From Macrostomum lignano (lineage: Eukaryota): a stretch of 64,000 nt of DNA. Both the position numbers and the translations under genes were made by a program. Shown here one piece after another: positions 35,772 through 56,827 of this stretch (positions are counted from its first letter, which is position 1; the number at the start of each line of letters is the position of its first letter). The stretch is from the NCBI GenBank assembly GCA_002269645.1, contig NIVC01000051.1:434001-498000 (forward strand), read 5' to 3'. The notes beneath the pieces are model-generated. The model made no database searches. It saw only the letters and a list, made by a program, of their open reading frames with translations, and was not told the DNA's origin.

Positions 35772-35839
35772 AAAATGTGTAGTGTTAAGATATTTTGAAA
35801 GTAAATAATCCGCTGCAACGAATCCTGCTGCTGGTAGTT

Positions 35840-36500
35840 GCACCCGTCGGCCGGCACAGCTTGGATGGTATTGTTCGTGAATTAACGGCTCCCCTAACTG
35901 GAGTGACTGAAAGGTACACTAATCAGTCTCTACGCAAGACTTGCGCAAGTACTCTACACCGTGCTGGCTTCGCTAGAGAGGACGTCGCTCATGTTACAGG
36001 ACACTCTTCGACAGCTATTGAGCGCTATATTCAGTTTGACGTACAAGACCATGTTAAAGTGCACTTCTGGTCTTCTTGTGGTCAGTCATCAAGTCCGTTC
36101 ATTGCAACCGAGCCTGAACGCTCTGTTGAAGCTATGGAACAAAGCAACGTAGTGAGTGCTAATCCTGCAAAGAAAAGGAGGCTTAACATCAACGGTAACA
36201 CTAACACTGTTGAAATCGTCTTTGAGGGAGTGCTTAGAAAAGGCTTCTATTTCTTACTATGCTGAACTTAATTTTGCTGTTGGTTTTGTTAGTTTACATT
36301 CGTTAAATACAACTGTAGCAGGACTGAGAAATATTGAATATTGAATGGCACGAAACGAAGAAAGCGGCCTGGTGCACTGGAGGTGGATCCTCGCTAATGG
36401 TTTGAAGGAGATCAGCGAACTGTCGAAGATTGATCTAAATTACCTCCTTAAAAGTTTCATTCTGGAGGTGCGTACAAAGCCTATATATTGAAGGTCATTT
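35840..36500 (+). pseudogene. Crypton-type tyrosine recombinase (DUF3504-like) fragments
   Basis: PVGRHSLDGIVREL..YTNQSLRKTCASTLHRAGFAREDVAHVTGHSSTAIERY matches the YR box II (H/Q-x-x-R, GH, catalytic Y). A second piece, ISELSKIDLNYLLKSFILEVR (~36400-36480), resembles the Crypton N-terminal helix. Confidence 0.75.
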
Positions 36501-39863: not shown

Positions 39864-40540
39864 CACATACAGTTTAATGCACACACCGACGCACAGTCGT
39901 TGTAATGAAGAGAGAGAGAGAGAGAGAGGGGGTCAGTTGGTTGTCTGAATGTCAGTTTGTTGTCATTCAGCCAAAGGTGTCGACCAGCTCTAGACACCTC
40001 GATGTACGGTTGAGTATTGTTCACCTACTGAATGCACTTCTGCTGGGGTGGTGCCATACATTAGGGCCTCCACCTCTCGTATGGGCACTGGTATGCGATG
40101 CGGTTCGATTGAAGGGTTCGCTGGATCGTTGGATCGTTAAAAAAACCGCCGGTGCATGGTACTTCGTAATAATCCTGTCGTAAGGTGCACAAAACTACCA
40201 GACGGGAAAAATCCCCCCCCCTGACAATTTTCTTGGCTGCGCCGGAACGGAGCAACGCAGACACACAAAAAAACACGGGCTAACTTTCTGTTGCGCACCT
40301 TTTCAAACAAGAATAAAGTCGCCAGCCCTCTGGACCGTTAAGATATTCTACGATTTTGCCAAAAAGTCGGATTTTTTCCATAAGCGCTAGTGTATTCAGT
40401 ACACCCCTGTGCGCCAATCAGCACTGCGCCTCAGTGCAGCCTTGCCAAGCCTCCAAACTTCATCAGCACGTCGATCACATGTGTCTGCATCAGCACTGAC
40501 TTCTTTGGTCACTAGCCTTCACCCAGGCGGAGCTTCTGGA

Positions 40541-40835
40541 CCTTCAACAGGTGGCACCAGGTGACTATGGACACCCTGATGCGGATTTCTCTAGTTTCGC
40601 TGATCAAGCCTCGACAGTGGGCAAAACTCGACTGCTGGACGTTCTCAGCTAGTCTCTCAAGCATTCTGTCATCACTCAGACGCCATTGGCACCTTCAACA
40701 GATTACACCACGCGACTATGGACATCCTTTTGCGAATGTCTTTGATGTCACTGATCAATCATCAATAATGGGCAAACTTTAACTCCTGGTCATTCTCAGC
40801 TAAGGCTCACAAACAGTCTATCATCACTCGACGTG
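40541..40835. repeat. Diverged tandem duplication, 151-bp period
   Basis: CCTTCAACAGGTGGCACCAGGTGACTATGGACACCC (40541) versus CCTTCAACAGATTACACCACGCGACTATGGACATCC (40692); similarity continues through GGGCAAA and TTCTCAGCTA. Confidence 0.7.
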
Positions 40836-41920
40836 ATGACGCAATTAGTTAACTGAACTGTAAATTGAACCGAATTTTTGCCAAGAGAAAAAATAACAAA
40901 AAAAGTATCGAATTTCTGTGTGGACTAAAGATCAAGTAATAAATGTTACTAAAATGGCTAAAAAATAATCTCTTTTGGGTGTCCTTAGTCATGTTTTCGT
41001 CTCCTTTAAGGTGCCGACAGCGTCGGGGTGATGACTGAATGTTTGAGTCATTGCACAAGCCCCAAATGAATGATTCGTGGTGCTGGAGTCAGAGCTGTTT
41101 ACCGCTGAGCTGCTCCCCTCTAGCTTGTAAGACTAAATCGACGTGCAAGGATATAACGGACGGTATTGAATAAAAATGGAGACAATCTCGGCAGGAGTTC
41201 TTGCAAGCCAAGAAAATAAGAAAATTGCATGCAGCATGGAAGGGGCCTCCGATCAAATATAAGAGATAGATAGATAATAGCTACTCAAATAATTCAACTA
41301 ATGACGCTTGGGGCCTGTAAGAAGTTACAGGCCTGTAACATAGTCAAAGCAGTACTGAAAACTTACCTCAAACAAAGGGTGGTGTTAGAAGAACAGAAGC
41401 TTACGACCAGAGCTAAAGCACTACAGAATAAAGGAGCGAGATAGTTGAAAGAGAGTAGCTCTGCCTTTAGCCGAGCGAGAAACCTGTCCGCCAAAAAGTA
41501 GTTTATGGTCTAACCTCCCGAGCAAGAATCCGCAGCCATGTACTTTAGTCTATGGCCGAACTATCCAAACAAAGGACAACTACTGAAGCAAAGGGAATCA
41601 GCTAGCCAGTAGGCTTGGGTTAAAAGATAGCTATAGTTTATGGCAGAAACCCCAAATCTCGACAAACAGCCAGCCAGCCAGCCAGACAAGTGCATATGAA
41701 CCTAGTCATACAAACATAGCATTCGTCAGATGCACTCATGCGATTGCTGCAAAATTAAAGAAAAAATCTGGGGGATGGGTGCTTCTTCAGCTTAAGAAAT
41801 ATGGGGTTGGGTGCTAAAGGTTTGATGGAGGTTGATGGGGAGGGCACTTGAGTAGTAGTAGTGTAGAAAAAATTGTATTGGCGCTTAATAATTAGAAAAT
41901 ATATATTTACTTAGGAGGAA

Positions 41921-43585
41921 ATGGCTTCGAAATGCCGCCGAAATTCGGAATGCCCTGTGTGTGGCGAGACTGTACCTGGTGGAACTTGAAGCGCCACTAT
42001 ATAAATCGCCATGAGAAAGAGGTCCTGCAGAGCTTCCAGCTGAGTGATGTACCAGAGCGCATGCGCCCTACGGAGGCACAATGGTCTGCCGCAGACGGCA
42101 AGCAGCGGAGAAACATTGCTTGGTTGGCGATCAAGTGCAGCCGCAGCACCAAAGCCAGCCATCGATTGGAAGTCTGCGGAGAGGCGCGGTGTCGGCTTCG
42201 GGCCCATCGCTGTCAGGGTTCAATCGATTCCGCCGCGCAGTCAGTACCTCCGGCAGCGGACCCCGATGATGCATCAGCATCGGTAGCGGCGGCGACTGCT
42301 GATGTCATCTTTGAAGAGGATAATACAGCGATCATCGATAGGTTGATGGTCGCTGTAGATGCAATGGGACGCGCTGCCAGCTTCTCATCAAACGATCGCC
42401 GCCGCCGCCTGCTGCTTTGCCCGACGGTTGAGGAGCAGGAGGAAGCTGACGACGAGCCGCAGATGCTGCAGCCAGACAGTTCTACTGCTGCTGCTGCTGC
42501 TGCTGTTGCAGCTGCGCCGACAGTCGTGCCGCCATTGGCCAGTCATTCGCCATTGTCGTTGCAGACAGCTGATATCGCGCTGGAGCGACCCAGCAGCTCG
42601 TCTGCCAACATCAGCAATGGCCAACAACTGCTCGTCAGACTACCTGCCACGCCACCAAAGCAGCGCCGGGCGAAAGCGGCAAAGTGGGCGGCGCTGAAGC
42701 CTCATTCTTCTTCTGCTGCTGCTGCTGCTGACAATGTTGAGGAGGAGACCTCGTCGGCAGCGCCCAGTGCCAGCAGCGGCGACGCCATGGCGAGCGTCAG
42801 TCTGCCAGCTCCGCCTCCGTCTTTCGCCACTTCAGCAAGGAGCACCCAGCCAGGAAAGTGTCGCTCGGCGACCGGCCGTCGATTGAGGCCACGCTGAACC
42901 GACTGTCCGTGCTCTGGTGGACGGCGCCAACTAAGATGCGCATCTCCGCCAACTAAAGCCACAAACGCCGCTGGGGAAAGATCCGCGATTCCGTTGAGGC
43001 AACACTGGAGCGGCTGTGGCAGCGCAAGCAGCTCACTCTGGCCGACCTAGTGCTGCGGCCTTTCCTCATCGCTGGCGTCTTTGGCTTGGAGGTGGTCACC
43101 AATCAGTTGAAGCTGGCGCCTTCAACGGCGGGCCGCAAGTGCCAGGAGATAGTTACCATCCTGCTCTCCCTGGAGGGTTGGCTCACATTGCGCGGCAATC
43201 GCTGTCTTGAGCAGGTGCTCGACGCGATCGGACTGCGCCAATCAGAGTTGTTTTGTGCCGCCGCCGCCGCCGATGCCGACGACAGAGGGGATGCCGAGCA
43301 GGCCGGCTGGCGAGCTCAGCAGCAGCTGATGAGCGACAACCCACTCGCTGCTAGGCAGTTTGCAGTTGTGCGCATGTCTTCGCTGATCGACGAAGCCAAA
43401 GGTGAGTTCGCCGCTGTACGCTCACTCCAAGAGCAGCTCCATAAGCTGGGCCACCATGGTCGGCAGATGAGCTATACGGCCAGCTATATTAAACGTAGCG
43501 AAGTTGCAACATTTTTGACCGGCGCGATCGGTTTTTTAATATGCTGCTTGAGCACAGTTGGGAGGCGCTGCCGCAAACTGGAGAC

Positions 43586-43620
<35 letters not shown>
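41921..43620 (+). pseudogene. 5' part of a frameshifted zinc-finger / putative tyrosine-recombinase-like gene, interrupted by the LINE
   Basis: A 1-nt frameshift near 41975 joins CPVCGETV to WNLKRHYINRH (C2H2-like finger). A second C/H cluster (VCGEARCRLRAHRC) and Ala/Gln low-complexity linkers follow, then a helical region (43050-43600) ending at the (CAG)n target of the LINE. Confidence 0.4.
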
Positions 43621-43622
<2 letters not shown>

Positions 43623-46600
43623 CGCTACGTCAACGGACGTAGGCGGCCACAACAGCACCGTGGCCGCGGTCATGGGCATCGCCTCTACCCGGCGACCCGG
43701 ATGGTCGGACAGCTACGACCGTGCCAAGATGCCCAACCCTAGGCAACCGCCTCCCCCGGTACGCGACTACGTCACGACCGCGGTGCGAGGCGACGATCAC
43801 TTCCTGGTGTCCAGACATGTCATCATCGTCATCAGCCTCTTTTTCTGGCTCGAAAGGGGGCGAAACAGGCGGCGAAACCCCGGGCCCGACTGCGACTGCT
43901 GCGGTCGCCCCATCAGAAGAGGCTCGAATTTCCTCTCCTGCCAGTCCGGTCAGTGCCCCACCCGCTGCCACAAGCAACCATCTTGCAGCGGCATCCGCCG
44001 ATACCAACAGAACCAACGCTGGCTCTGCCAACAACACGGCGGACCAGAGCGCACCCCCGCAACCCGCCAACCGCGGAGGCAGCTACCCCCGGCAACTGCA
44101 GTGCCTGCTCGGGCCCAATCCGCTCCGGCACCACTCCGCTACGGTGCGCAACCGCCGGCTGCACGTCAACCTGCCACCGTACAACCAAATGCAACAGCAT
44201 CCCGCGCTTCAAGGGCTGCCCTCGCTGGCGCTGCCCCGTCCACACCCCACCTGCGGTGAGGTCCCTGGCCGGCCGCCCGATCGCGGATAGGCGCCCCGCG
44301 GATGCCGACCACCCCCGCCCGCCGACTCAAGACTCCGGCTGCTGCAGCGGGTGCTACTCTCTCTTCCGCTCTAACCACCACCCCATCGCCTGCCGTCAGT
44401 GTAATGCTAAGTTCCACAAGAAATGCACCCGTCTCACCAGGCTCGCGGCCGACCTGGCTGCCACCCAGGGTCACTGGACCTGCCCGGCCTGCACCTCATC
44501 ACAGGCGGCACACGAAACGGCAGCCACTAACCAGACCACGACTCAGGCCCGGATTTCCACCCAGCGCGCCTGCCTCCGCACCACGACCCGCCAGGAATCC
44601 CTGCTGACTCTTCAGTGGAATGCGGACGGCATCTCAACCCGGGTCGCCGAGCTGGCAAACTGCATCAACTCTCTCAAACCAGACCTGATCCTGATCCAGG
44701 AGTCCAAACTGCGCCCGCAGGACCCCACCCCCTGCCTCCATGGTTACGCCGCGGTTCGGGTGGACCGCAAGCGGCCGGACGGCGGAGGTGGGCTGCTCAC
44801 ATTCATACGGGACTGTCTCGCATTCGAACGCAAGCCGGTGACGACCCGCGAGCCAATCGAAGCCTGCCGCGTGCGTATCTTTCTGAGCTCCAAGAAATCC
44901 CTGGACGTGGACAACGTGTACGTCCCGCCTGTCCGTGGCGGCGAAGAACACGGCGAGGTACCAACGGACGCCGACCTGCTCGCCGGCGACTTCAACGCCC
45001 ACTCGGCCATCTGGGACCAGATCCAACCGGCCGATGGTCGTGGCGACACCCTGCTGGACTGGGCCAGCGAACATGGCCTGACGGTCGTGAACGACGGCTC
45101 ACCAACCAGAATTAACCGCGGTACAGGCGGCGAGAGCACCCCAGACGTATCGCTTTGCCGCAACGCTTGGCATCACCGCACCTCTTGGAGTACCCTCGAC
45201 GACCTCGGCTCCGACCACCTCCCAATCGCCATCAACCTCCGCTGCACCACCGAAAATCTCCATCGTCAGACCAGGACTTTCTGGAGAAGCACCGGGGTGG
45301 ACTGGACGGCGTTTGCCCAGGACGTCGACTCGCAAGTCGCCACCTTCAAAAGCACCGGCGTCTCATTCAAACAACGAGCCAGCCGCCTCACGGAGGCCAT
45401 CATAGCATCGGCACACCGCCACGTGGGGAAAAAGTCCTCTAAACGTCCAGCCCGGCCCTGGCTCTCCCAGGAGGCTCGCGAGGCCATCCGCAAGCGCAAT
45501 CGCCTTCGCAGAGACGTCAGTAACCGCCGCGCCGAATGGCTCCAAGCCTGTGCGGACGCCGCTACGCTCTCCCGCGAGAGCAAGGAGAAGAGCTGGCGGG
45601 AATTCCTGTGCGACACCGACCTATGCCAAGATGCCACCAAGGCCTGGCGCCTCGTCCGCAGCCTCAGCGGTACCTCGGGTGACAACGCCACTAACGAGGC
45701 CCTGTCCGTCAGAGACAAAACCTACTGCGACGACGCGAGTAAGGCTGAGATCTTCATCAAGCACTACGCGGCGGTCAACCGTCTCCACTTCAACAAAGCC
45801 GACCGCGCCGTCAACCTCTCCGCTAAGTCTGCCGTACGCGCCTGCGACACCAACCAGGAGGCTGAAGAGTGCGCCCTATTTTTGGAACACGAGCTCGACG
45901 CGGCCATCAAGCAACAACGAGCCACTGGCGCCCCCGGCCCGGACGACGTCTCGCCGCGCTTCCTCAAGGCCTTGGGCCCCATCGCCAGAGCCGAGCTCCT
46001 CGCACTGTTCAACCAGTCTTTCTCCAGGGGCATCGTGTCACAGTGCCACCATCATTCCGCTGCTCAAGAAGGGCAAGCCACCCGGCGACTTGGCTTCCTT
46101 CCGCCCGGTCAGCCTCACCTCCTGCGTTGTCAAGCTGCTGGAACGCATGATGACCGCGCGCCTCACCTTCTTGGCTGAGTCCCGCGGCTGGCTCTCACAA
46201 CAGCAGGCCGGCTTCCGCCGACTCCGCAGCTGCGAGGACCAAATTCTGTCAGCTGTCCAGAGCATCAGCGACGGCTTCCAGAACTCGCCCATGCTGCGCT
46301 CCATCATGGCGTTTCTCGATTTTAGTAAAGCCTATGACAAAGTCTGGATTGAGCGCCTACTCCTCACTCTCATCGAGAAAGGTGTACCAGGGATCCACAT
46401 CCGGTGGGTCCGCGCCTTTCTCAGCAACCGCCAAGCCCGCGTGTGCGTCAACGGCACCAACGGACGCTACCGCCGGCTTCGCCAAGGGCTCCCGCAGGGC
46501 TCAGTCATCACCCCGCTGCTTTTTATTGTTTCTTGACCCTGTGGTGTCGGCCATCCCGGCGCAAGTTGACGCCCTGATGTACGCTGACGACATCGCCCTC

Positions 46601-48320
46601 CGCAGCCAGAGCAACGACGTCGCAACAGCTACACTCGTCCTCCAAGACGCGGTCGACTGCATCGCGAACTGGAGCCGAGCCAACCACATGGTGCTGAACC
46701 CGACCAAAAGCGAATGCGCCCTGTTCACTACCGACCCGCATCAGGCCGCCCTCCAGCCCAGCATCTGCCTCAACGACACTACCATTCCGTTCTGCAGCAG
46801 CCCTCGTTTCTTGGGCGTCTATCTCGACCGCACGCTTTCCTTTAGCAAACAGGTATCCGAAGTTTGCAGAACAGTCGGCAACCGCTGCCGTCTCCTAGCG
46901 TGCCTCGCTGCCAGGTCGTGGGGCTGGTCTAAAGACAGTCTCCTAACTACCTTCAAAGCAATGCAACTCAGCATCCTGCACTACGCGTCACCAGCATGGC
47001 AACCCTGGCTGGCAGACACCGCCATGTCTCATCTCCAACGCGCGCAGAACCAGGCACTCCGTATTGTCACAGGTCAGCTTCGCACAACCCCGGCTGAGGC
47101 TCTCCACCTCGAGGCTGGAGTGTGCACCGTCGCTACCATGCGCGACCAACTCTGCCTCGCGGCGTACGAAAAAGCGCTGCGCCTCCCGGAGGACCACCCG
47201 CGCCACCGCGCGGCCGCGGCCCAGGTTCCGCACCGCACGGCCAGAAACAGCTGGCGCCACCGCGCCCAGCAACTTCTGGCAAGAATGCCGGGAAACCTGG
47301 GCCACCGCGAAGCCCTCCCACCGCTCCCCCGCTGCCCTTGGATCCACCTGGCGGCGGGCTGGACCGTGACCCGCTTGCTGTCGACCGTCGCCGTCAGACC
47401 CAGGCAGGCTGCTCACCCGACGACGCAACAAGACAGCGCTGACTTAGCCAGGGACCAGGCGATATCATCCATCCGCACGGCGAACGCTGACCTGGTTCTT
47501 TACACGGACGGCTCCGCCGAAGGCGGCTGCTCCGAGGGGGGCGCAGCATGCGTGGTTACCCGCGGCGACCCTGCCACCCCGCAGGTCGTCGACACCGTCG
47601 CTGCCCGCGGCGCCTCGCCGACCTGCAGCTTCGACGAGGAGCGCCGCGCCCTCGGACTGGCCATGGCCTGGCTCAACGACCATCAAGTCACCGGCCGAGT
47701 GTTGATCTGCTCCGACAGTCGCGCACTGCTCGACGCCCTCATGAGCATCGTGCCGAGATGCTCGCTCCCGGACTTGAACTGCCGGGTTGCCTCCCTCACT
47801 CTCCAGTGGATCCCAGCGCACTGCGGCATCCCTAGTAACGAGATGGCGGACGCAGCCGCCAAGAATGCCGCATCCATCGCTGGCGCGCCAGCGAGCACCT
47901 CGTACAGCAGCGCGGTGGCAGCGGTCAGGCGCGAGATCGGCGACCCGCCCCTGACCCATGCCCGCACGATTTCTGTGTACCGCGCGCTCAACCGGCAACG
48001 CGACCGCGCCGAACTTCAGAATCGTCAGAATGCCGTCCTCCTGGCGAGGCTCCGCGCGGGCCACTGCAGCCTTCTCCGTGCGTACAGTCGCATCGTCAAC
48101 CCGACGGCGGACCCCATTTGCCCACGCTGCGAGGAGGGCCCGGAAGACCTCGAGCACTGGCTCGGTTGCCCGGCCCTCCGGAGGCTCCGCCTCGAGCTGT
48201 TCGACGAGGACACCCTGGACCCCGGGATTCTGACCGTCGCCCCCGCGAGGTCGGTGGCGCTTGCGAGGCGAAGCCGCTGACTCCCTCGGCGCCTTTGCCC
48301 CAACAACAACAACAACAACA
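43621..48320 (+). mobile_element. Full-length Ingi-like (I-group) non-LTR retrotransposon: 2 PHD-like fingers, APE endonuclease, RT, RNase H, CCHC; three frameshifts
   Basis: QWNADGI..LIQESKL..LAGDFNAH..SDHLPI (APE); FRPVSLTS..QQAGFR..FLDFSKAYD..QGSV and YADD (RT); LYTDGS..ICSDSRA..WIPAHCGIPSNEMADAAA (RNase H); CPRC..HWLGC. It has a (CAA)n tail at 48301-48320 and (CAG)n on both sides. Confidence 0.92.
43664..43735 (+). ncRNA. HDV-like self-cleaving ribozyme fold at the 5' end of the Ingi-like element
   Basis: P2 UGGGCAUC(43673-80)/GAUGCCCA(43728-35); P3 GCC/GGC around a 7-nt loop UCUACCC; P1 GGUC(43668-71)/GACC(43694-97); J1/4 GG; P4 AUGGUCG/CGACCGU; J4/2 GCCAA. P1 is short and L3 deviates from consensus. 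Confidence 0.6.
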
Positions 48321-48781
48321 GCAGCAGCAGCAGCAACAGCTCGTCTCGCAGCGACGACGACAATCAGCTGTGCGCCAAGATGGTATGTGTCCGGCGCATT
48401 GTGCAGGAGTTCGTTTTCTTCTGCAGCGTGGAACAGCCAATTAGTCTATTGCCGTGGATTTATCTGCGGCGGCAGCATCTGCTTAACCGTGCAGTGCGAC
48501 ACAGGGCGGCGGACGACCGGGACCAGCTGTTTCGCGACACCAGCATCAGTGCCACTGAAGAAGATCTCGTTGGGCACTCGCACCTGGTGCTGCCGCCGAC
48601 CGAAGTTCCGCACAAGGCCGGGCACACTGGCCAGCCAGCCACAATGGTGCTGCCCGACCTCTTCTGCGACGCCCTGCTGCGCCTGCACGACGCCTACATC
48701 AGGCCGAGCCTCGTTGCGCGCGGAGTCACTGTTCCTCCGCCCGAGGTGTCCAGTATGAACTGTACGATGGACATGCGTTAG
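48321..48781 (+). pseudogene. 3' part of the LINE-interrupted gene, putative tyrosine-recombinase-like segment
   Basis: ORF 48380-48781 includes VPHKAGHTGQPATMVLPDLFCDALLRLHDAYIRP, recalling the HK..G.PA.vl..l..l..Y...RP segment of animal Crypton-like YR proteins (recognition from memory, unverified). No complete box II seen. Confidence 0.3.
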
Positions 48782-49435
48782 TTAGCCAGCCCTTGCTTAT
48801 AAATTTTTCATCTTTTGATATTGCGCGATCAGTTTTTCGATGTTATTATTATATTATATATTATTATTTATTATGTTAATTTATCAGTTATTTATAGATG
48901 TAATCAAAGTTAAAGCCATAAACTATTAATGTATTGGACTGTTAAGACAAGGAAGATTAAAGTCGTTGAACGAAGCCATCCCTAACAGCAGCTAGCTAGT
49001 AATTTCTTCTTCTATATGATTGATAGGTATATATTTTATTATTGAGACTAAGCTTTCTGCTTCGGCACGCCATTTGAATTTTAGCGTCCTTTTTCTACTG
49101 CCGCCGTTGTTGTTAATCTACCGCTGCTCATCGCTGCTGTCCATTGCTGTGGATTATTATTATTATCAAAGTAAGAAATCTTCATACCTGCAGTTTTTAG
49201 TCAACGGAAAACTGTATAGTCAATAGACAGGAACAATAGGCTTAAGAAGGCTTTAAACTATGCGACAAAAACATTGGGGGAGGGGGGGAATAGCTGGCTG
49301 GCTAGCTGAATAAATGAATTGATTATTAAACAAAGAACCGTTATTAGGCCAGAGTCTCTAATAGTAGTAGTACTAGCCAAGTAATTAGTCAAGAAACAGA
49401 ACATTAATCAATCGATCGATCGATCGATCAAAAGA

Positions 49436-50422
49436 TCAGTACATGCCATTGTCGGGCTCATCGTCGGCGGCAGCAACGTAGGCGCCATCAGGTACTGGCT
49501 GGCACTCCCCATGACATTCTTCAATGTCGTGATCCATTTCTATAGCGACATTATTCTCGTTCCGCAGCCGGCGCTGAAAATCCGGACTGTATTCTTCAGG
49601 CGAAGCGTGCCCGGCCAGGACTACTATGAGTCTTTGCGCCCAGTCGATGTACACATGCGATTGATGCTTCGTGTTGATTAGAAACGAGTTCCCATTCAAC
49701 AGCCGCAGTAGCGTCGCTTCTAGGTCACTACTCCCTTCAAAATATTGGGGCCGAATTTCGTCAATGAAGATGACAGAGTGCCTGTTGATGTCGAGCCCAT
49801 CAAAGATGAAGTCGTTGCCACCGAAAGGCTTGATTGTTGGGCAGAATATTCACTCTAGGCCCCAGTGGCGCTCAACGGCCGTGGTTTTTCCGACTCCTGA
49901 TGGCCCGTAAAGGTACACGACACCTGATGTCCGGAGTAGGGCATTGCACACGGCCACCCGGAGCGGGCACTGACGGCGCTTCAGGTGTCGCATTGTCTGC
50001 TTCAGTGCTTCTGAGCAAGCCGAGCAGCGTTGAGGGCGCTCCTGACGGATACGACGCTGGCGCTGGATATCCTTAAGCATCGTAAGGACTAAGGAGTGCC
50101 GCCCGCATCTGCTGGTGAGCTAGCAGAAAGCCATCGGTATTATTTGGCAGGCTGGCCGTCCGCGGGTAGGAGAGCACCCAGCGCGTTGCCTGCACCAGCA
50201 TGCTGCATTGAGATACGCCAATGCCGACCAGGAGCGGGTATCCGTCGTGCTGCGTGAGACTATCGTATCAGGGGAACGCACACCGCAGACTGTCAGCGTT
50301 GTGAGGTTGTTGAGCACGAAACCTCGGCCCACCTCGGATCCCGGCAGCAGTCTGTGCAGCAGCTCGTAAACGTGCCAGCCGGCGGTGTTGGTCACAAGCC
50401 GAATGTAGCCCGACAAGGTGCG

Positions 50423-50463
<41 letters not shown>

Positions 50464-51712
50464 CGTCGACAGCCAGCGGGTCCTCCACTAGCCGGCGGTA
50501 ACACGACTCGTCCATGCCGACGTTAAGTTCCGGACTGGACGCCAATAGCAACTCAGTGCAGTGCGGCTCGAGCGCCTCGCCCAAGTACACCTTTGCACGG
50601 CCTGTACATGGGATTGTTGTGGCGTTGCATGCATAAGTATAAAGTTAAGCAGAGAGAAGAGCAGTCTACTACTACTCACCGATGAAGCGCAAATTATCGA
50701 TGTGGATGACGTGCAGATAGCGCCGCACAGTTAGTACTCCGGTGTCCTCAACCAGCCGCTGTACCGGAGCGGCACCATACAGCGGTAGCGAACGGCTAGC
50801 TGATCGAGTGACCGTGAACTGTTGGCGGAACGCGTCGGCCTGCAGCAGCGGATTCTGGCCGATTTGCCGGACGCCGACGCCTCTGCGTCGACCGTTTGCC
50901 GCTGCGCCTCTGCCGCGTTGGGAGCTGAAGCTGCTGCTGCTGCTGCTGCTGCTGATGGTACTGCCAGACTCCGAGCGCTGTAGCATTCGGATTAACTGTG
51001 CAGCAGATGACGACGGGCTGTAGCTTAACGAGGACAGTTCGTCCGGTCGAAGCTCCTCGGCGGCTCGAGCTTCAGGCCGGTTCCAGCTCCGTCGTTGGCT
51101 CGCCAGAGGCATGGTCTGCATTGACCAACGTGAGATTGCTTGCGAGTACGGCTCCCGCTGCTGCGTTCGCTGCCATTCAGTCTGCTGTTGCTGTTGCTGC
51201 TGCTGTTGACGATGCAGCTCGGCGGCTACTTCTGGCGGTTTCGGCAGCGTTGAGAGCTCGGCAGGGTTGGCGACAGCTGCAGCAGGTTCCGGCGGCGGTT
51301 TTTGCTGCGGCACGGCAGGGCTCATGGACGCCTTGTAGTCGAGCATGGCGTTGAGAGCCGCCCGGTCGTCCGAGTCCATCTCATCAAGCTCGTAGGAGGC
51401 GGATGACTGTTGCTGCATAGTTGACTGTGACGGCAGTGTCGGCTGTGGTGGCTGCCGCGGTGCTCCACCACTAAACGCCAGCACACTGAACTCGTCGGCT
51501 TCATCGTCGTCCGTCGTGGCGTTCCGCCGCCTTTTCTGTGCCGGCTGACCAGCAGGTGGGATATCATCGGCGGAAACTTCTCGCTTGCGGACAGAAGACA
51601 CGGGGCCTGCAGTATTCTGGGCAGCAGCGGCTCTCTCTCGCTCGTACTCATCTAATGCAGCTGCGATGCGCTCGTCGTCGCTGTCAGTAAACTCGTCTTG
51701 CCAAGGAGACAT
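49436..51712 (-). pseudogene. Rep-like protein with SF3 helicase. Exons 51712-50680 and 50601-49436; two in-frame stops
   Basis: Walker A LYGPSGVGKT (49883-49906), Walker B VIFIDE (49757-49774), B' INTKH, C-like IVVLAG and FQRR Arg finger; HUH motif II-like HRTLSGYIRL. The 78-nt intron GTGAGT..TACAG (50679-50602) joins the ORFs in frame. TAG (50120-22) and TGA (49850-52) interrupt an otherwise continuous frame. Confidence 0.75.
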
Positions 51713-51940: not shown

Positions 51941-52040
51941 ACTGACGCGTCTGCCCCATTAGAAAGCTATGCACTGACGACTCTGCCCCATTTAAAGCTA
52001 TGCACTGACGCCTCTGCCCCATTTAAAAGCTCTACTGAAG
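51941..52040. repeat. Three 31-32-bp direct repeats upstream of the Rep-like gene, with further copies near 52262 and 52310
   Basis: ACTGACG(CG/AC/CC)TCTGCCCCATT..AAGCT at 51941, 51973 and 52004; ACTGACGCGTTTGCCCCATTTAA at 52310. Confidence 0.85.
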
Positions 52041-53395
52041 TGTGAGCATTCTATGCACCTATAAATATTCTAATGTTGTTCGTAGTCATATTTGTACGTG
52101 CTTGTGTATGGGGGGTGGTTGCTTGCAACGTGCGGTTGCGCCCGTGCGTGTGCAACACCCAAAACCCACCTCAATCTTCGGCTTATAAAATATATCGATT
52201 GTCAGGCCTGAGCGCCAAGTCGGTTTTCTCGCAATCTCAAACCTCGCTCGTTTTACAGAAGACTTTGCCCCATTCAAATGCATGGAAGACAGCCATAGAC
52301 TATCAAGTTACTGACGCGTTTGCCCCATTTAACCCATTACTGCAATTTCAATATAGAGTGAGCGTGCGTTCGTGGCAAATATGTCACAGGGAGAAGCCTT
52401 ACAATAAGGAGTGTACACAGTATTAAGTAAGGTTGAACATGGACAGCACGCAAATTTCTCACCGAGAAGCTCAACTGAGGGACCGGCAAACCTAGAAGTA
52501 GACATCTAAACTTGCAGTTTACATTTCGAACGAATTGATTAACATCTGAGTGCGAGTGCAGATATCATTTCCGCTTTTGTGATCGTCCAGGAATCATTCA
52601 ATCTTTAAGTGCCTAATACGAGAGATTCCACTGGGCTAAGAAAAGATATTTTCATAGCTTGCTTATTGCTTATGACGAAACTTTAACTGCCTGATCAGAA
52701 ACCTTTGCTCTGTCAGCAAGAATGCGATGATTGTTTCCGATTTTTTCTTTGATTCAATAATTGACGATGCAATTTAAAAGTACAGATTTACATATTTAAT
52801 GGAACAGACGTACGTGCAACACCGAAAAAACGCTGCAATTAGTAGGGGTTGACATTTTCGCGAAGGTTTGCACTCGCTGATGCCTAATAGACAGAATGAC
52901 TGAGCTAGCGGGTGACTGGAAGAGCTAACAAGAGTTTTCGACAAGGCGAAATTTTGAGCTTGTAAGACCCCCCCCCCCCCCTATTACAGTTCACCTAGTT
53001 GAATTTATCCTTCCTGGTTTGGCTTTTTGGTTTAAACCAGCATGGAGAAAAAGAAGTCGCAGATTCAGCGTTCAGGTTCAACGCAATTTAGCTAGTACAG
53101 TCCATACTCAGTCGTGAATGGATAGCAGCTGGATAAACAGGCACTATTACACTCGCTTCATTCATTGGCCGAATAAAAATGTCCTAGGCAGAAAGGCAGT
53201 GCAGTGCACAGGGGTGGAGTCCAAATGCGCATACAAGGGGTGAATTGACAGAAAGCTTTAAATAAAGTCAAATAAATTTTTTCAACATGTTTCGTCTATC
53301 TGAACAATACAGTATAGCTGCCGACGTAAAATTAAGGCAATTGAAAGCGGAAAAGATCAGGATTAACTAATAAAAACTCGATCTAGAAAATTGTG

Positions 53396-54919
53396 ATGGC
53401 CAATGGACTAAAGCGATATTGTACCCCAGGTGAGTATGTACTCGTTTGGATCAAGTGGGCACAAATATACCTTTTAACAATTTTTTGGACATTAGTGAAT
53501 TTTATTTAGTCTGACTGACTAGCCAACAACAGTGCTACGTACCGAAAGACAAACATCTGTTAATTTGATCTATCGATACTCGAAAGCCGCCGCAATCGAC
53601 GACTCTAGCGCTGGGTACAGAATCAAGAAATACTGAAGTTCCATGGCAAGTTAGTATAGCTGTGTCTGTGATTAGTGGAATAGTCGGGTTATACATGTAA
53701 TAGGTCGAGAAGTATTGTTAAAGAAGGCTGCAGTAAAAGGTGGCTAGAACAAGCCTTCAATTGACCGTATAGACCCCTCTCTCTGGCAACGCCCTTGACT
53801 GCAACTATACCTGTGATTACCATCTATATCTTTTTAGCGAATAGCCGAAAACTGATGCTTCTAATAATACTGACGATTGCGATACAGCTGATAATCTATC
53901 TAAATAAAAGGCCAACTACAAATACTCAATCAGAATGGCAAAACGATTCGTCAGCCTTAAAGAATTCAAGTTGCAGCGAGCTGCCCTCCCAGTTCTCGGA
54001 CTCCATCCCGGCGCTGGTGCACTGGACCAGCAAAGACGGCCGAGTGCCAGCCAAGCTGGTTCCCATTGTGCGCTCCTGGGCACGGCTGAGTAACGGTAGC
54101 CGAATCCAGGCCTGGCACTTCATGCACTGGGACGACAAGCAGATCTCCGAGCTCATCTCGAAGCACTATCCGTACCTTGTTCAAAGCTACCGCAAGCTGG
54201 TCAACGGGCTGGAGCGATCGGACATCGGCCGTCTGGTCGTGCTGCACCACGTCGGCGGTCTGTACATCGACACGGATGTGGAGCTGCTTCGAGATCCGAC
54301 ACCGCTGCTAAGACCGTCGCAGCTTCAGGGAGTGGGGCTGACTCCGAACTTCGACTGTGAGTCAGCCGTGTGGAGTCAGGAGCCTACTGAGCACGCAGTC
54401 TTCACGTTCAATCTTCCGGCACTGATTTCGAATGCGGTGATGATGAGCCGAGCGAATCACAGCTTCCTGAGCTTCGTGCTAACAAACTGGCCGCAATGGT
54501 TCGAGCAGAATTGGGCCAGTAACACCAAGAGAGTTCATAACGATGCGGTGCACGTCACGGGACCCAGAATGCTGCACACATTCTACGAGAAGTACACGGC
54601 TCTGAAGAAGAGCGACCGACCTGCCGACTGGTGCGGCAACATGCTGGCCGAGGCAGACGCCTTCCAGCCCATCTGGGACGTGGCATGGATTCCTGACAGA
54701 CTAAAGAAGCTCTGTCTAGCACCAGAAAAGCTGTCTAAGCCGAAACAGGACCATTGCAAGCGACTGAACCGCACAAAGTTCGAGACGAAACAGATTCCGA
54801 ATGGTTCCTACACGGTCCACAGGTTTATGCATTTGAGCTACACGCATAACATGCTAACTTCTAGTGCTTTGGAAATTTCTTCAATTTTACCTATTATAAA
54901 CTGCAACCTGAACTTTTAA
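53396..54919 (+). CDS. GT32 glycosyltransferase paralog 6. Predicted exons 53396-53429 and 53838-54919
   Basis: ORF 53795-54919 with GT32 core. ATG 53396 (MANGLKRYCTP), phase-1 donor CAG|GTGAGT (53429/53430) and acceptor TTTTTAG| (53837/53838) join in frame to NSRKLMLLIILTIAIQLIIY (TM). Confidence 0.87.
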
Positions 54920-55265: not shown

Positions 55266-56408
55266 CTAAAGCACCTGATTCGGATCGCGAGACGAGTAAA
55301 ACGCGTAAATACGTTTCCCCAATTCCGGTCCCAGTCGCCTGGCAGTGCTAAGCGGCCCGGTGCCTTTGCACACCTGCAGATCGGCCACAAGTTTGACGGC
55401 CTCCTCGGCGCTGGCGCACCCGGCGTAGGCCCGAATCAAGTGGCCAGGCGACGGGTAGGCTCGCATTATTGTCCGAGCCACCTCGGCCGTAACCAAAGGA
55501 AAACACTGCAGCTGGCAGCGCCACAGCTCGTCAATGCCAGCTGGCGAGCCTCCGTCCGCGCTCTCTTCCAGCCGGCAGCCGGCGCCAACACCGGCGCCAA
55601 CGTGAAACGAGAAGACGGATTCAAGTCTGGCAGCTTTGAAAGGCCGCTCGGCAATGGCTTTGGTCAGACAGTAGACCAGTTTGCCCAGTTGAACTGGATC
55701 CTCTAGCACGCGTACAGTGACACCGCGAGTCAGCTGCAGCGAGACGAACGCTTCCTCGCACTGGAGTCGAGTGACCTGATCAGCTGTGCTAGCTTTGGGC
55801 TTCTTAGCTGGCGGCGCTGCTGGCTTATCGGAATTGGCCAGCATCTTTGCACGCAGAGCGTTGCCTTCAGCGGCTCGGCTGGACTGGGTTATGTGAAGCT
55901 CCAGATCGTAAACGACAAGACTGGGCGACCAACGATTAGTGCTGACAAGCTGCTCGGGAAACACTAATGAGCTCAGCTCACTCTGCCGCTTCTGCTGAAT
56001 CAATTCAACTAATTGGCGACCGTCCATTATTAGCAAGGAATCGGACTCGAGCTCTTCAAATTCTACTGAAGCAGCAGCTAGCGACGATGGCAAAGCGTCG
56101 TGAGCCAGATCGGCAAACGCGGCCGGGTCCAACGCGTGAACGTTTCTACGCCAGCGAATAGCGGGCAGAGGCAACAGTCGCTGTTCATCGGCGTCTAATG
56201 GAACAACTTGTTGCCCGTTCAGACAGCCGGTTATCGACGGGCCAAGCCGCTGGTCATTGGCAATGCGATCGTCCAGCAATACGGCGACGTGTTTCAAGCA
56301 CTCGCGCGGCTGCATGCACTTTCGAATGCGGCGCAGTGCAGCTTTCTCGGCTTTTTGACGCTTTGCGACCAGCTTTGCCGCCGCCGCGTTGGAAGGATTT
56401 GTAGCCAT
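55266..56408 (-). CDS. EME1: Crossover junction endonuclease subunit EME1 homolog
   Basis: QPRECLKHVAVLLD (P.ECLK motif), an inactive ERCC4-like region (CEEAFVSLQL..LTKAIAERPFK) and the HhH tail LWRCQLQCFPLVTAEVARTIMRAYPSP..RRLGPELGKRIY. First ATG in the ORF is at 56408; upstream exons cannot be excluded. Confidence 0.88.
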   Translation of the reverse strand: MATNPSNAAAAKLVAKRQKAEKAALRRIRKCMQPRECLKHVAVLLDDRIANDQRLGPSITGCLNGQQVVPLDADEQRLLPLPAIRWRRNVHALDPAAFADLAHDALPSSLAAASVEFEELESDSLLIMDGRQLVELIQQKRQSELSSLVFPEQLVSTNRWSPSLVVYDLELHITQSSRAAEGNALRAKMLANSDKPAAPPAKKPKASTADQVTRLQCEEAFVSLQLTRGVTVRVLEDPVQLGKLVYCLTKAIAERPFKAARLESVFSFHVGAGVGAGCRLEESADGGSPAGIDELWRCQLQCFPLVTAEVARTIMRAYPSPGHLIRAYAGCASAEEAVKLVADLQVCKGTGPLSTARRLGPELGKRIYAFYSSRDPNQVL

Positions 56409-56827
56409 GGGTTGGGCGAGAGCATCAAAGTTGCAGAGAATTAGTACATAGGTTGAATATCTATAAAAGAATTTAAGTTGAAGTATCGTTACAGATCTTA
56501 ATGAAGTGCGTATTGATAAATGCATGAAATGTAAAACTCAGCTTCGCCGCTTTCACATCTGCAGTTTTCGCACTCTAATTGGATATACTCGTATATAACT
56601 ATTCTGTTAGTAATTGAGACCTATTTGAAGCTAACTTAAGTCAAATTATTCAGTCTAGCTTAGACCACAGAACTTACACAGAATGGTCAATCAATCAATG
56701 TCTATGACTCCGAAATGCGTGCGCGTGCACACTACTTTTTTAGTGAAGGGCCCCGAAGTATATTATAGTGCAGAGGAAACTGATAGAGCAACATATTTAA
56801 TTTTGACACAGAGATTTTTTCCATCAA

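Follow-up and report, generated by a model that had tools for sequence, protein, structure and literature searches.

A decayed copy of a two-gene mobile element pairing a Rep helicase with a tyrosine recombinase in Macrostomum lignano

Introduction

The gene at 49436–51712 on the minus strand of the window belongs to an ~8 kb two-gene mobile element of Macrostomum lignano, in which a Rep helicase is accompanied by a tyrosine recombinase; it is a copy, now decayed, of the element's replication gene. Here, the window is the whole analysed stretch of 64 000 nucleotides (positions 434001–498000 of contig C51). An earlier, sequence-only reading had described an HUH plus SF3 replicase with one intron, broken by two point mutations. 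The gene is real, with an HUH-fold domain, an SF3 helicase domain and a 78-nt intron. The two-gene element to which it belongs is almost certainly real, and the copy in the window is dead in its Rep and recombinase genes alike. We propose, with a probability of about 0.6, that the element moves by excision and integration through its recombinase and multiplies as a double-stranded circle by means of a nuclease-dead Rep helicase.

For eukaryotic recombinase transposons, passage through a circle is the assumed route, and their gain in copy number is poorly explained; the present element carries a candidate replicase. It would also provide a sequence-alignable case of an HUH Rep turned from a nicking enzyme to a plain origin-binding domain, a step by which papillomavirus E1 and polyomavirus large T have been proposed to arise (PMC6668415, in the part of the text available). 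A eukaryotic element pairing a recombinase with a Rep helicase was not found in full-text searches of the literature, judged from the listings and the openings of abstracts; Repbase, Dfam and subscription papers lay outside this search, and it is possible that the element has already been catalogued as an unclassified or Crypton-like repeat. Relatives might also be present in the contig files that accompany PMC11071296. We regard the element as a variant of recombinase-mobilized DNA elements that possibly forms a new group. A more far-reaching view is put forward tentatively, at somewhat less than even odds: that it represents a new class of eukaryotic mobile element, an integrative, capsid-less animal DNA plasmid moved by a recombinase, whose CRESS-derived Rep lost its nuclease independently of papillomaviruses and polyomaviruses and thereby re-ran the switch from rolling-circle to theta replication. 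Macrostomum lignano is a laboratory model with a spliced transcript of a sibling copy, so that circles and protein activities are open to experiment.

Copies and sampling

The gene family gave 50 matches across 33 contigs of the Macrostomum lignano genome (764 Mb searched). Flanks were collected for 22 Rep-bearing regions picked from these 33 contigs, some of which are non-independent; the window, C1789 and C1938 are one and the same locus. In a word-based protein search, the Rep of the window returned a single match, a Macrostomum lignano hypothetical protein of 97% identity, and the recombinase returned none.

Structure and decay of the Rep gene

Exon 1 (50680–51712, minus strand) starts with the ATG at 51712 and encodes an acidic/Gln-rich disordered N-terminus, a basic KRRR patch and the first strand of the HUH fold, the position of which was judged by eye against alignments. 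At its very start (51640–51712) lies a short acidic-hydrophobic helix that is echoed in other subfamilies and presumably resembles RPA-binding motifs. The intron (50602–50679, minus strand) begins with GTGAGT, ends with AG and contains an in-frame stop. The prediction of a 78-nt GT-AG intron was confirmed by one contig of run X5 (likely RNA, by our guess), in which exactly these 78 nt, 50679–50602, are skipped. The 50680/50601 joint, for which an RNA check had been suggested, was present in one of the four runs examined; the X5 contig bears variants of a sibling copy, and splicing is thus shown for the family rather than expression for the window copy. Exon 2 (49436–50601, minus strand) encodes the remainder of the HUH-fold domain, which lacks the catalytic His pair and Tyr, followed by a helical domain, a Cys cluster and the SF3 helicase. 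The SF3 domain occupies 49436–49930 on the minus strand, with Walker A at 49883–49906, Walker B at 49757–49774, the B′ Lys at ~49668, the motif C position at ~49608 and the Arg finger at ~49570. Upstream of Rep, 31-bp tandem repeats and two further copies of the repeat (51941–52336) are candidate promoter or origin sites.

The gene had been regarded as nearly intact, with two point stops as its sole breaks and a single frame of ~730 codons. Comparison with sibling copies gives a different picture, with two frameshifting indels and one nonsense codon. Relative to the siblings C150, C283 and C3646 and to C1938, the window Rep carries one 7-nt indel near 50262 and a second one, opposite in sign, near 50090; both are common to C1789 only. 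The segment between them (approximately 50090–50262, minus strand) is out of frame, so that ~58 codons in the middle of the proposed frame are wrong; in C150 and C283, exon 2 is open over 400–410 codons, and ~58 residues of it differ from that frame. One of the two proposed point stops, the TAG at 50120–50122, lies within this shifted segment, whereas the other (49850–49852, minus strand, between Walker A and Walker B) is a true in-frame nonsense codon at a position where other copies read through. A search for stop-free copies had been suggested, and C150 and C283 answer that description in exon 2. Inactivation was recent, as had been supposed: the window differs from a copy with an open exon 2 by 18 substitutions in 1150 nt. 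The idea that the first frameshift is common to the window and allele C1938 was rejected, as C1938 has its own 4-nt loss.

The Rep protein and its relatives

A profile built from 13 natural element Rep pieces was searched against 1.84 billion proteins and matched 201 of them at E ≤ 0.001. The best outside matches examined are unnamed HUH plus SF3 Reps with intact motifs (HxH and YxxK), and in this protein search the lineage, suspected to be undescribed, proved to be an unnamed one. These relatives align with the element Reps across the HUH domain and the following helical region, and some of them give weak scores to papillomavirus (PPV_E1_C) and parvovirus helicase families. Their genomic loci were sought in viral contigs, metagenome contigs and phages, and none was found.

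The HUH plus SF3 architecture held up in a sibling structure model and in the family profile. The intron-free N-terminal part of the C267 Rep was modelled with a mean pLDDT of 72.4. Of the 65 rows in the underlying alignment, 53 are active Reps, a composition that biases the fold. This model matched circovirus and nanovirus Reps with a Z score of 9.5 (r.m.s.d. 3.0–3.8, 91–98 residues aligned), tied with the origin-binding domains of E1 and large T at 8.9. A Foldseek search of the PDB with the Rep and recombinase models returned nothing at E ≤ 0.001. For the helicase, the best PDB matches of the family profile are SF3 helicases, namely AAV Rep (E = 5 × 10−11), NS1, E1 and PCV2 Rep, whereas the suggested Pfam check fell short, with RNA_helicase scoring under its cutoff on Rep. 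When a profile of element Reps only was used against the PDB, no SF3 helicase was recovered and the best match was an AAA protein (E = 0.06). A cellular AAA+ protein was considered and ruled out by the fold and the family profile; the Pfam AAA matches span the P-loop only.

The HUH domain has lost its catalytic residues throughout the family. The motif III Tyr is missing in all seven aligned element Reps and also in two outside fragments, whereas it is kept in 107 of the 109 outside relatives with a letter in this column (110 examined); the Tyr scored there for P0011 is a misaligned low-complexity residue. The motif II His pair is complete in 90 of 107 relatives and in none of the five element rows with letters at these positions. 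The segment HRTLSGYIRL, previously read as motif II-like, is indeed the strand at motif II but lacks the two catalytic His residues. A family-wide absence of this kind means that the protein is not a rolling-circle nicking Rep. In the helicase, Walker A, Walker B, B′ and the Arg finger are present as described; at the motif C position, however, all eight covering element rows read AGH rather than SN (Asn to His), and with a His at this position helicase activity would not be assured.

The dN/dS ratios were 0.12–0.55 for Rep (seven pairs), 0.12–0.17 for its helicase part and 0.34 for the HUH domain (the one scorable pair), and 0.16–0.24 for the recombinase (four pairs). These ratios indicate that the Rep and recombinase genes are under purifying selection. 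In a FastTree phylogeny without named references, six element Reps and three metagenomic proteins (P0008, P0010 and P0011) formed one group with an SH-like support of 98. Together with P0012, a nuclease-dead outside fragment that is absent from the tree, these metagenomic sequences suggest that the group may extend beyond Macrostomum lignano.

The partner gene

The replicase had been taken to stand alone as a viral or plasmid fossil. Instead, it makes up one half of a mobile element that carries a tyrosine recombinase, whose ends are defined and for which empty sites exist. On the plus strand of the window, the ORFs at 41.9–43.6 kb and 48.3–48.75 kb are one recombinase gene split by a LINE. 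The 5′ part (41921–43621) encodes a C2H2-like finger, a low-complexity linker and a helical domain and is broken by frame changes. In the 3′ part (48301–48751), the His-Lys motif and the first Arg are retained; a deletion has removed the catalytic Tyr as well as the second Arg. The LINE retrotransposon (approximately 43622–48300, plus strand; endonuclease, RT and RNase H) sits within a CAG tract of the recombinase gene and is not part of the element. Between the convergent genes, the spacer (48752–49435) is short of 1.1–1.4 kb at 48751/48752 in comparison with C150, C283 and C3646, and the missing sequence corresponds to the recombinase 3′ end and an inverted-repeat cluster in these siblings. 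In C150 the recombinase is an 885-codon ORF facing Rep.

In five of five diverged copies, the Arg, Lys, Arg and Tyr are invariant; the His of the His-Lys motif is there, but two His positions are unconserved. Although the structure model of the recombinase is weak (mean pLDDT 55.5), all of its 11 best fold matches (Z 6.0–7.7) are tyrosine recombinases or homologues of these. Pfam gave no match to the recombinase, including to DUF3504, and its profile, searched against PDB sequences, returned no match. In PHROGs, one of four recombinase pieces had a single weak integrase match (E = 0.009). A protein atlas placed the recombinase near clusters rich in Preplasmiviricota, in one of which 16% of members are Phage_integrase.

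By profile, the recombinase lies beside Rep in 13 of the 22 Rep regions (14 with one weak tblastn match), and this linkage spans subfamilies that are only ~30–45% identical in protein. The other nine (eight after the weak tblastn match) show no recombinase profile match within flanks of 10–40 kb, and five recombinase regions are without Rep. Rep and recombinase have a convergent arrangement in the window's subfamily; head-to-tail arrangements occur in other subfamilies. The Rep of the window locus shares ~93% identity with that of C150, the recombinase only 70–82%, an inequality which indicates that modules have been exchanged between subfamilies. The related copies C2367 (L061–L042) and C157 (L076–L077) have opposite relative orientations of Rep and recombinase, with internal inverted repeats between the genes, and the difference is possibly an inversion.

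Element ends and empty sites

The Rep-side end of the window copy is an 8-bp recombination core at 52377–52384 (minus strand), which reads ACATATTT in the window and ACAAACTT in C150 and C283; homology to these two copies ceases there, and the flanks differ. Across the window's subfamily, homology ends at an 8-bp core at three Rep-side and four recombinase-side sites. For the window copy itself, no empty site was found and the recombinase-side end could not be placed.

Complete copies have an imperfect 8-bp core at both ends, which is single in empty sites, as observed for four of the six tested insertions (C150, C283, C957 and C1267). The filled site of C150 has the cores ACAAACTT and ACAAATTT, and all four loci examined join its left and right flanks by the single core ACAAATTT. 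For C283, the empty site is a locus whose left flank is 98% identical over 1.5 kb and which has a single core; for C3646 the right junction alone was examined. In a second subfamily (C957, C1267 and C2240), copies start with GCTATCTT or AATATCTT and end with GCAAACTT or GCTAACTT. All nine loci examined for C957 are empty and have one core each; one of these loci agrees with both flanks at every position over the stretches compared (60 and 52 nt). The two cores of C957 differ at two of eight positions, the left core being that of C1267; such unequal cores beside an identical empty site fit recombination with the core carried by the element and do not fit duplication by fill-in. For C1267, the empty site is a repeat of high copy number, which is represented in the window at 40190–41050 (core 40279–40286). 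Direct repeats of 186 bp near C957 were considered as element ends and rejected, as they lie outside the ends in flanking sequence.

The elements so delimited are 7960, 8089, 8235 and 9993 bp in length, the last including an insertion. Rep lies within the ends, and the C150 copy has little room beyond the two genes. The ends are of the Crypton type, with short terminal direct repeats, no TIRs and a single core in the empty site. Two unequal cores, one from the element and one from the target, fit tyrosine-recombinase strand exchange through a circle, and the element recombinase appears to accept mismatched cores of 6–8 bp; YR spacers are 6–8 bp (PMC3212892, in the available part). Integration by the recombinase is strongly supported by these junctions.

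Proposed mechanism and alternatives

In the proposed cycle, the recombinase would join the two element ends into a circle. Rep would bind the origin by its dead HUH domain, unwind the DNA by its SF3 domain and recruit host polymerases in the manner of papillomavirus E1 and polyomavirus large T, and the recombinase would insert the circles at degenerate nnAAACTT-like sites. Circle replication by Rep is suggested by the layout of a dead HUH domain plus SF3 and by selection on the helicase. Two sets of sequences are no more than origin candidates: the inverted repeats lying between Rep and the recombinase in C150, and the 31-bp repeats located upstream of Rep. Circles, origin and replication are proposed from sequence, in assembled contigs only.

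An endogenized CRESS-type Rep that stood alone, nicked for rolling-circle replication and was broken by two point mutations would explain the HUH fold, the SF3 motifs and the intron. This very improbable reading is largely refuted by the family-wide lack of the catalytic His and Tyr residues, by the two frameshifts in the window copy and by the empty sites and ends that Rep has in common with the recombinase gene. Rep might otherwise be an accessory in a recombinase transposon. Its role could be that of a DNA-binding helper, driven by ATP, in excision or target capture, or that of a dominant-negative shield against ssDNA viruses. The dead nuclease and altered motif C agree with such a role, as do the regions with a recombinase only and the precedent of Cryptons, which move by recombinase alone (PMC3212892, in the text available). 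However, Walker A, Walker B, B′ and the Arg finger are kept, the helicase dN/dS is 0.12–0.17, and the E1 and large T replicases are known to be laid out in this way, as a dead HUH domain with SF3 (PMC6668415, in the available excerpt); an accessory role is considered unlikely.

Alternatively, the element could stem from an unknown dsDNA virus, as its integrated satellite or defective provirus; lacking a capsid, it would be packaged in trans, by Polintons for instance. The resemblance of the recombinase to Preplasmiviricota-rich clusters and the virus-type relatives of Rep point in this direction, and the C957 copy lies in a probable Polinton end with a double-jelly-roll-like ORF (E = 2 × 10−4) nearby. 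That ORF, however, is the one capsid-like ORF encountered and lies beyond the element ends; among the ORFs scanned in five element regions none matched a capsid family, other insertions are in unrelated repeats and scans of viral contigs gave nothing. Capsid genes were sought by Pfam in the element-region ORFs, a search that a divergent capsid could escape. A satellite origin is thus judged rather improbable, and movement by the recombinase with replication by Rep is the reading that we prefer.

Comparison with known systems

Cryptons resemble the element in having no long terminal repeats, short direct repeats at the ends and a proposed circular intermediate (PMC3212892, as far as the available text goes). 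Their repeats are 4–6 bp, whereas the element cores are ~8 bp and often mismatched. As regards membership of a Crypton clade (A, F, I, S or V), the element recombinase gave no match to DUF3504 or any other Pfam family, while a neighbouring Crypton-like ORF does match DUF3504. The element also differs in its second gene, the Rep helicase, which is located within the ends and subject to selection; the main text of the Crypton paper never uses the word 'helicase' (PMC3212892).

Papillomavirus E1 and polyomavirus large T share with the element an inactivated HUH domain joined to an SF3 helicase (PMC6668415, in part), with a fold similarity of Z = 8.9, and in these viruses this combination is the mark of a change to a structural role in origin binding (PMC6668415, in part). 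In contrast to theirs, the dead domain of the element is still alignable in sequence to catalytically intact Reps, which points to a loss separate from that in E1 and large T. No capsid genes were found in the element, and its Rep is carried by an integrating element. E1 has a disordered acidic N-terminus, like the element Rep. The element is thus Crypton-like in integration and likely E1/large T-like in replication.

Reps encoded by CRESS-DNA viruses, including the RepE1 type, likewise combine an HUH domain, a helical domain and SF3. The element Rep differs from them in having lost the catalytic residues, in having an intron gained and a recombinase partner, and in that no capsid gene was found. 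RepE1 cressviruses are reported to be endogenized in anemones (PMC11071296, in the available part). Bacterial pCRESS integrative plasmids resemble the element, in which no capsid gene was found, in being capsid-less and in having a CRESS-like Rep, site-specific integration and direct repeats at attachment sites (PMC6668415, in the portion available); they keep their nuclease motifs, whereas the element is animal-hosted, spliced and nuclease-dead. Replitrons and Helitrons are eukaryotic transposons with an HUH domain, but the domain is their transposase, whereas in the element it is dead and a recombinase is present. Helitrons have a PIF1-type helicase. Replitrons have no fused helicase, according to the accessible part of PMC10288648. 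Polinton-like viruses with a tyrosine recombinase also combine a recombinase and a helicase, with similar recombinase features, but are 14–40 kb in length (PMC12220804, in part) and have capsid genes, compared with ~8 kb, two genes and an HUH-derived Rep in the element. No Polinton-like capsid or packaging ATPase genes were found by Pfam in C150 and C957. The element differs in a defining feature from Cryptons, CRESS Reps, Helitrons and Replitrons alike.

Observations on individual copies and flanks

At C267 (18500–58499; L037–L040), tandem units of ~19.5 kb each contain one Rep and an acidic 307-residue ORF. The Reps of this array have an intron inside the helicase instead, and no recombinase lies within 40 kb. 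In C1811 (L050:1360–2148), a SET-domain ORF (E = 8 × 10−16) and C2H2-like ORFs lie a few kilobases downstream of a Rep copy. The C957 element (80449–88537; L033–L034 and L133) lies inside a repeat that recurs inverted ~25 kb away as an empty site, and the double-jelly-roll-like ORF (E = 2 × 10−4) is located between these inverted repeats; the host repeat is probably a Polinton-like terminal inverted repeat. In allele C1789, the recombinase gene carries another insertion, of 4.5 kb and different in kind, at a second CTG tract; taken together with the LINE in the window (with Cys-rich fingers), this suggests microsatellite targeting.

In the window, the repeat at 40190–41050 has 355 matches, often as inverted pairs. 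A fragment of a separate Crypton-like tyrosine recombinase lies at 35789–36265 (Phage_integrase, E = 5 × 10−4), and ORFs similar to it occur beside C150, where DUF3504 is matched, and inside C283. Just beyond the element end lie host genes for a DXD glycosyltransferase (53765–54919, plus strand) and an EME1-like protein (55266–56537, minus strand).
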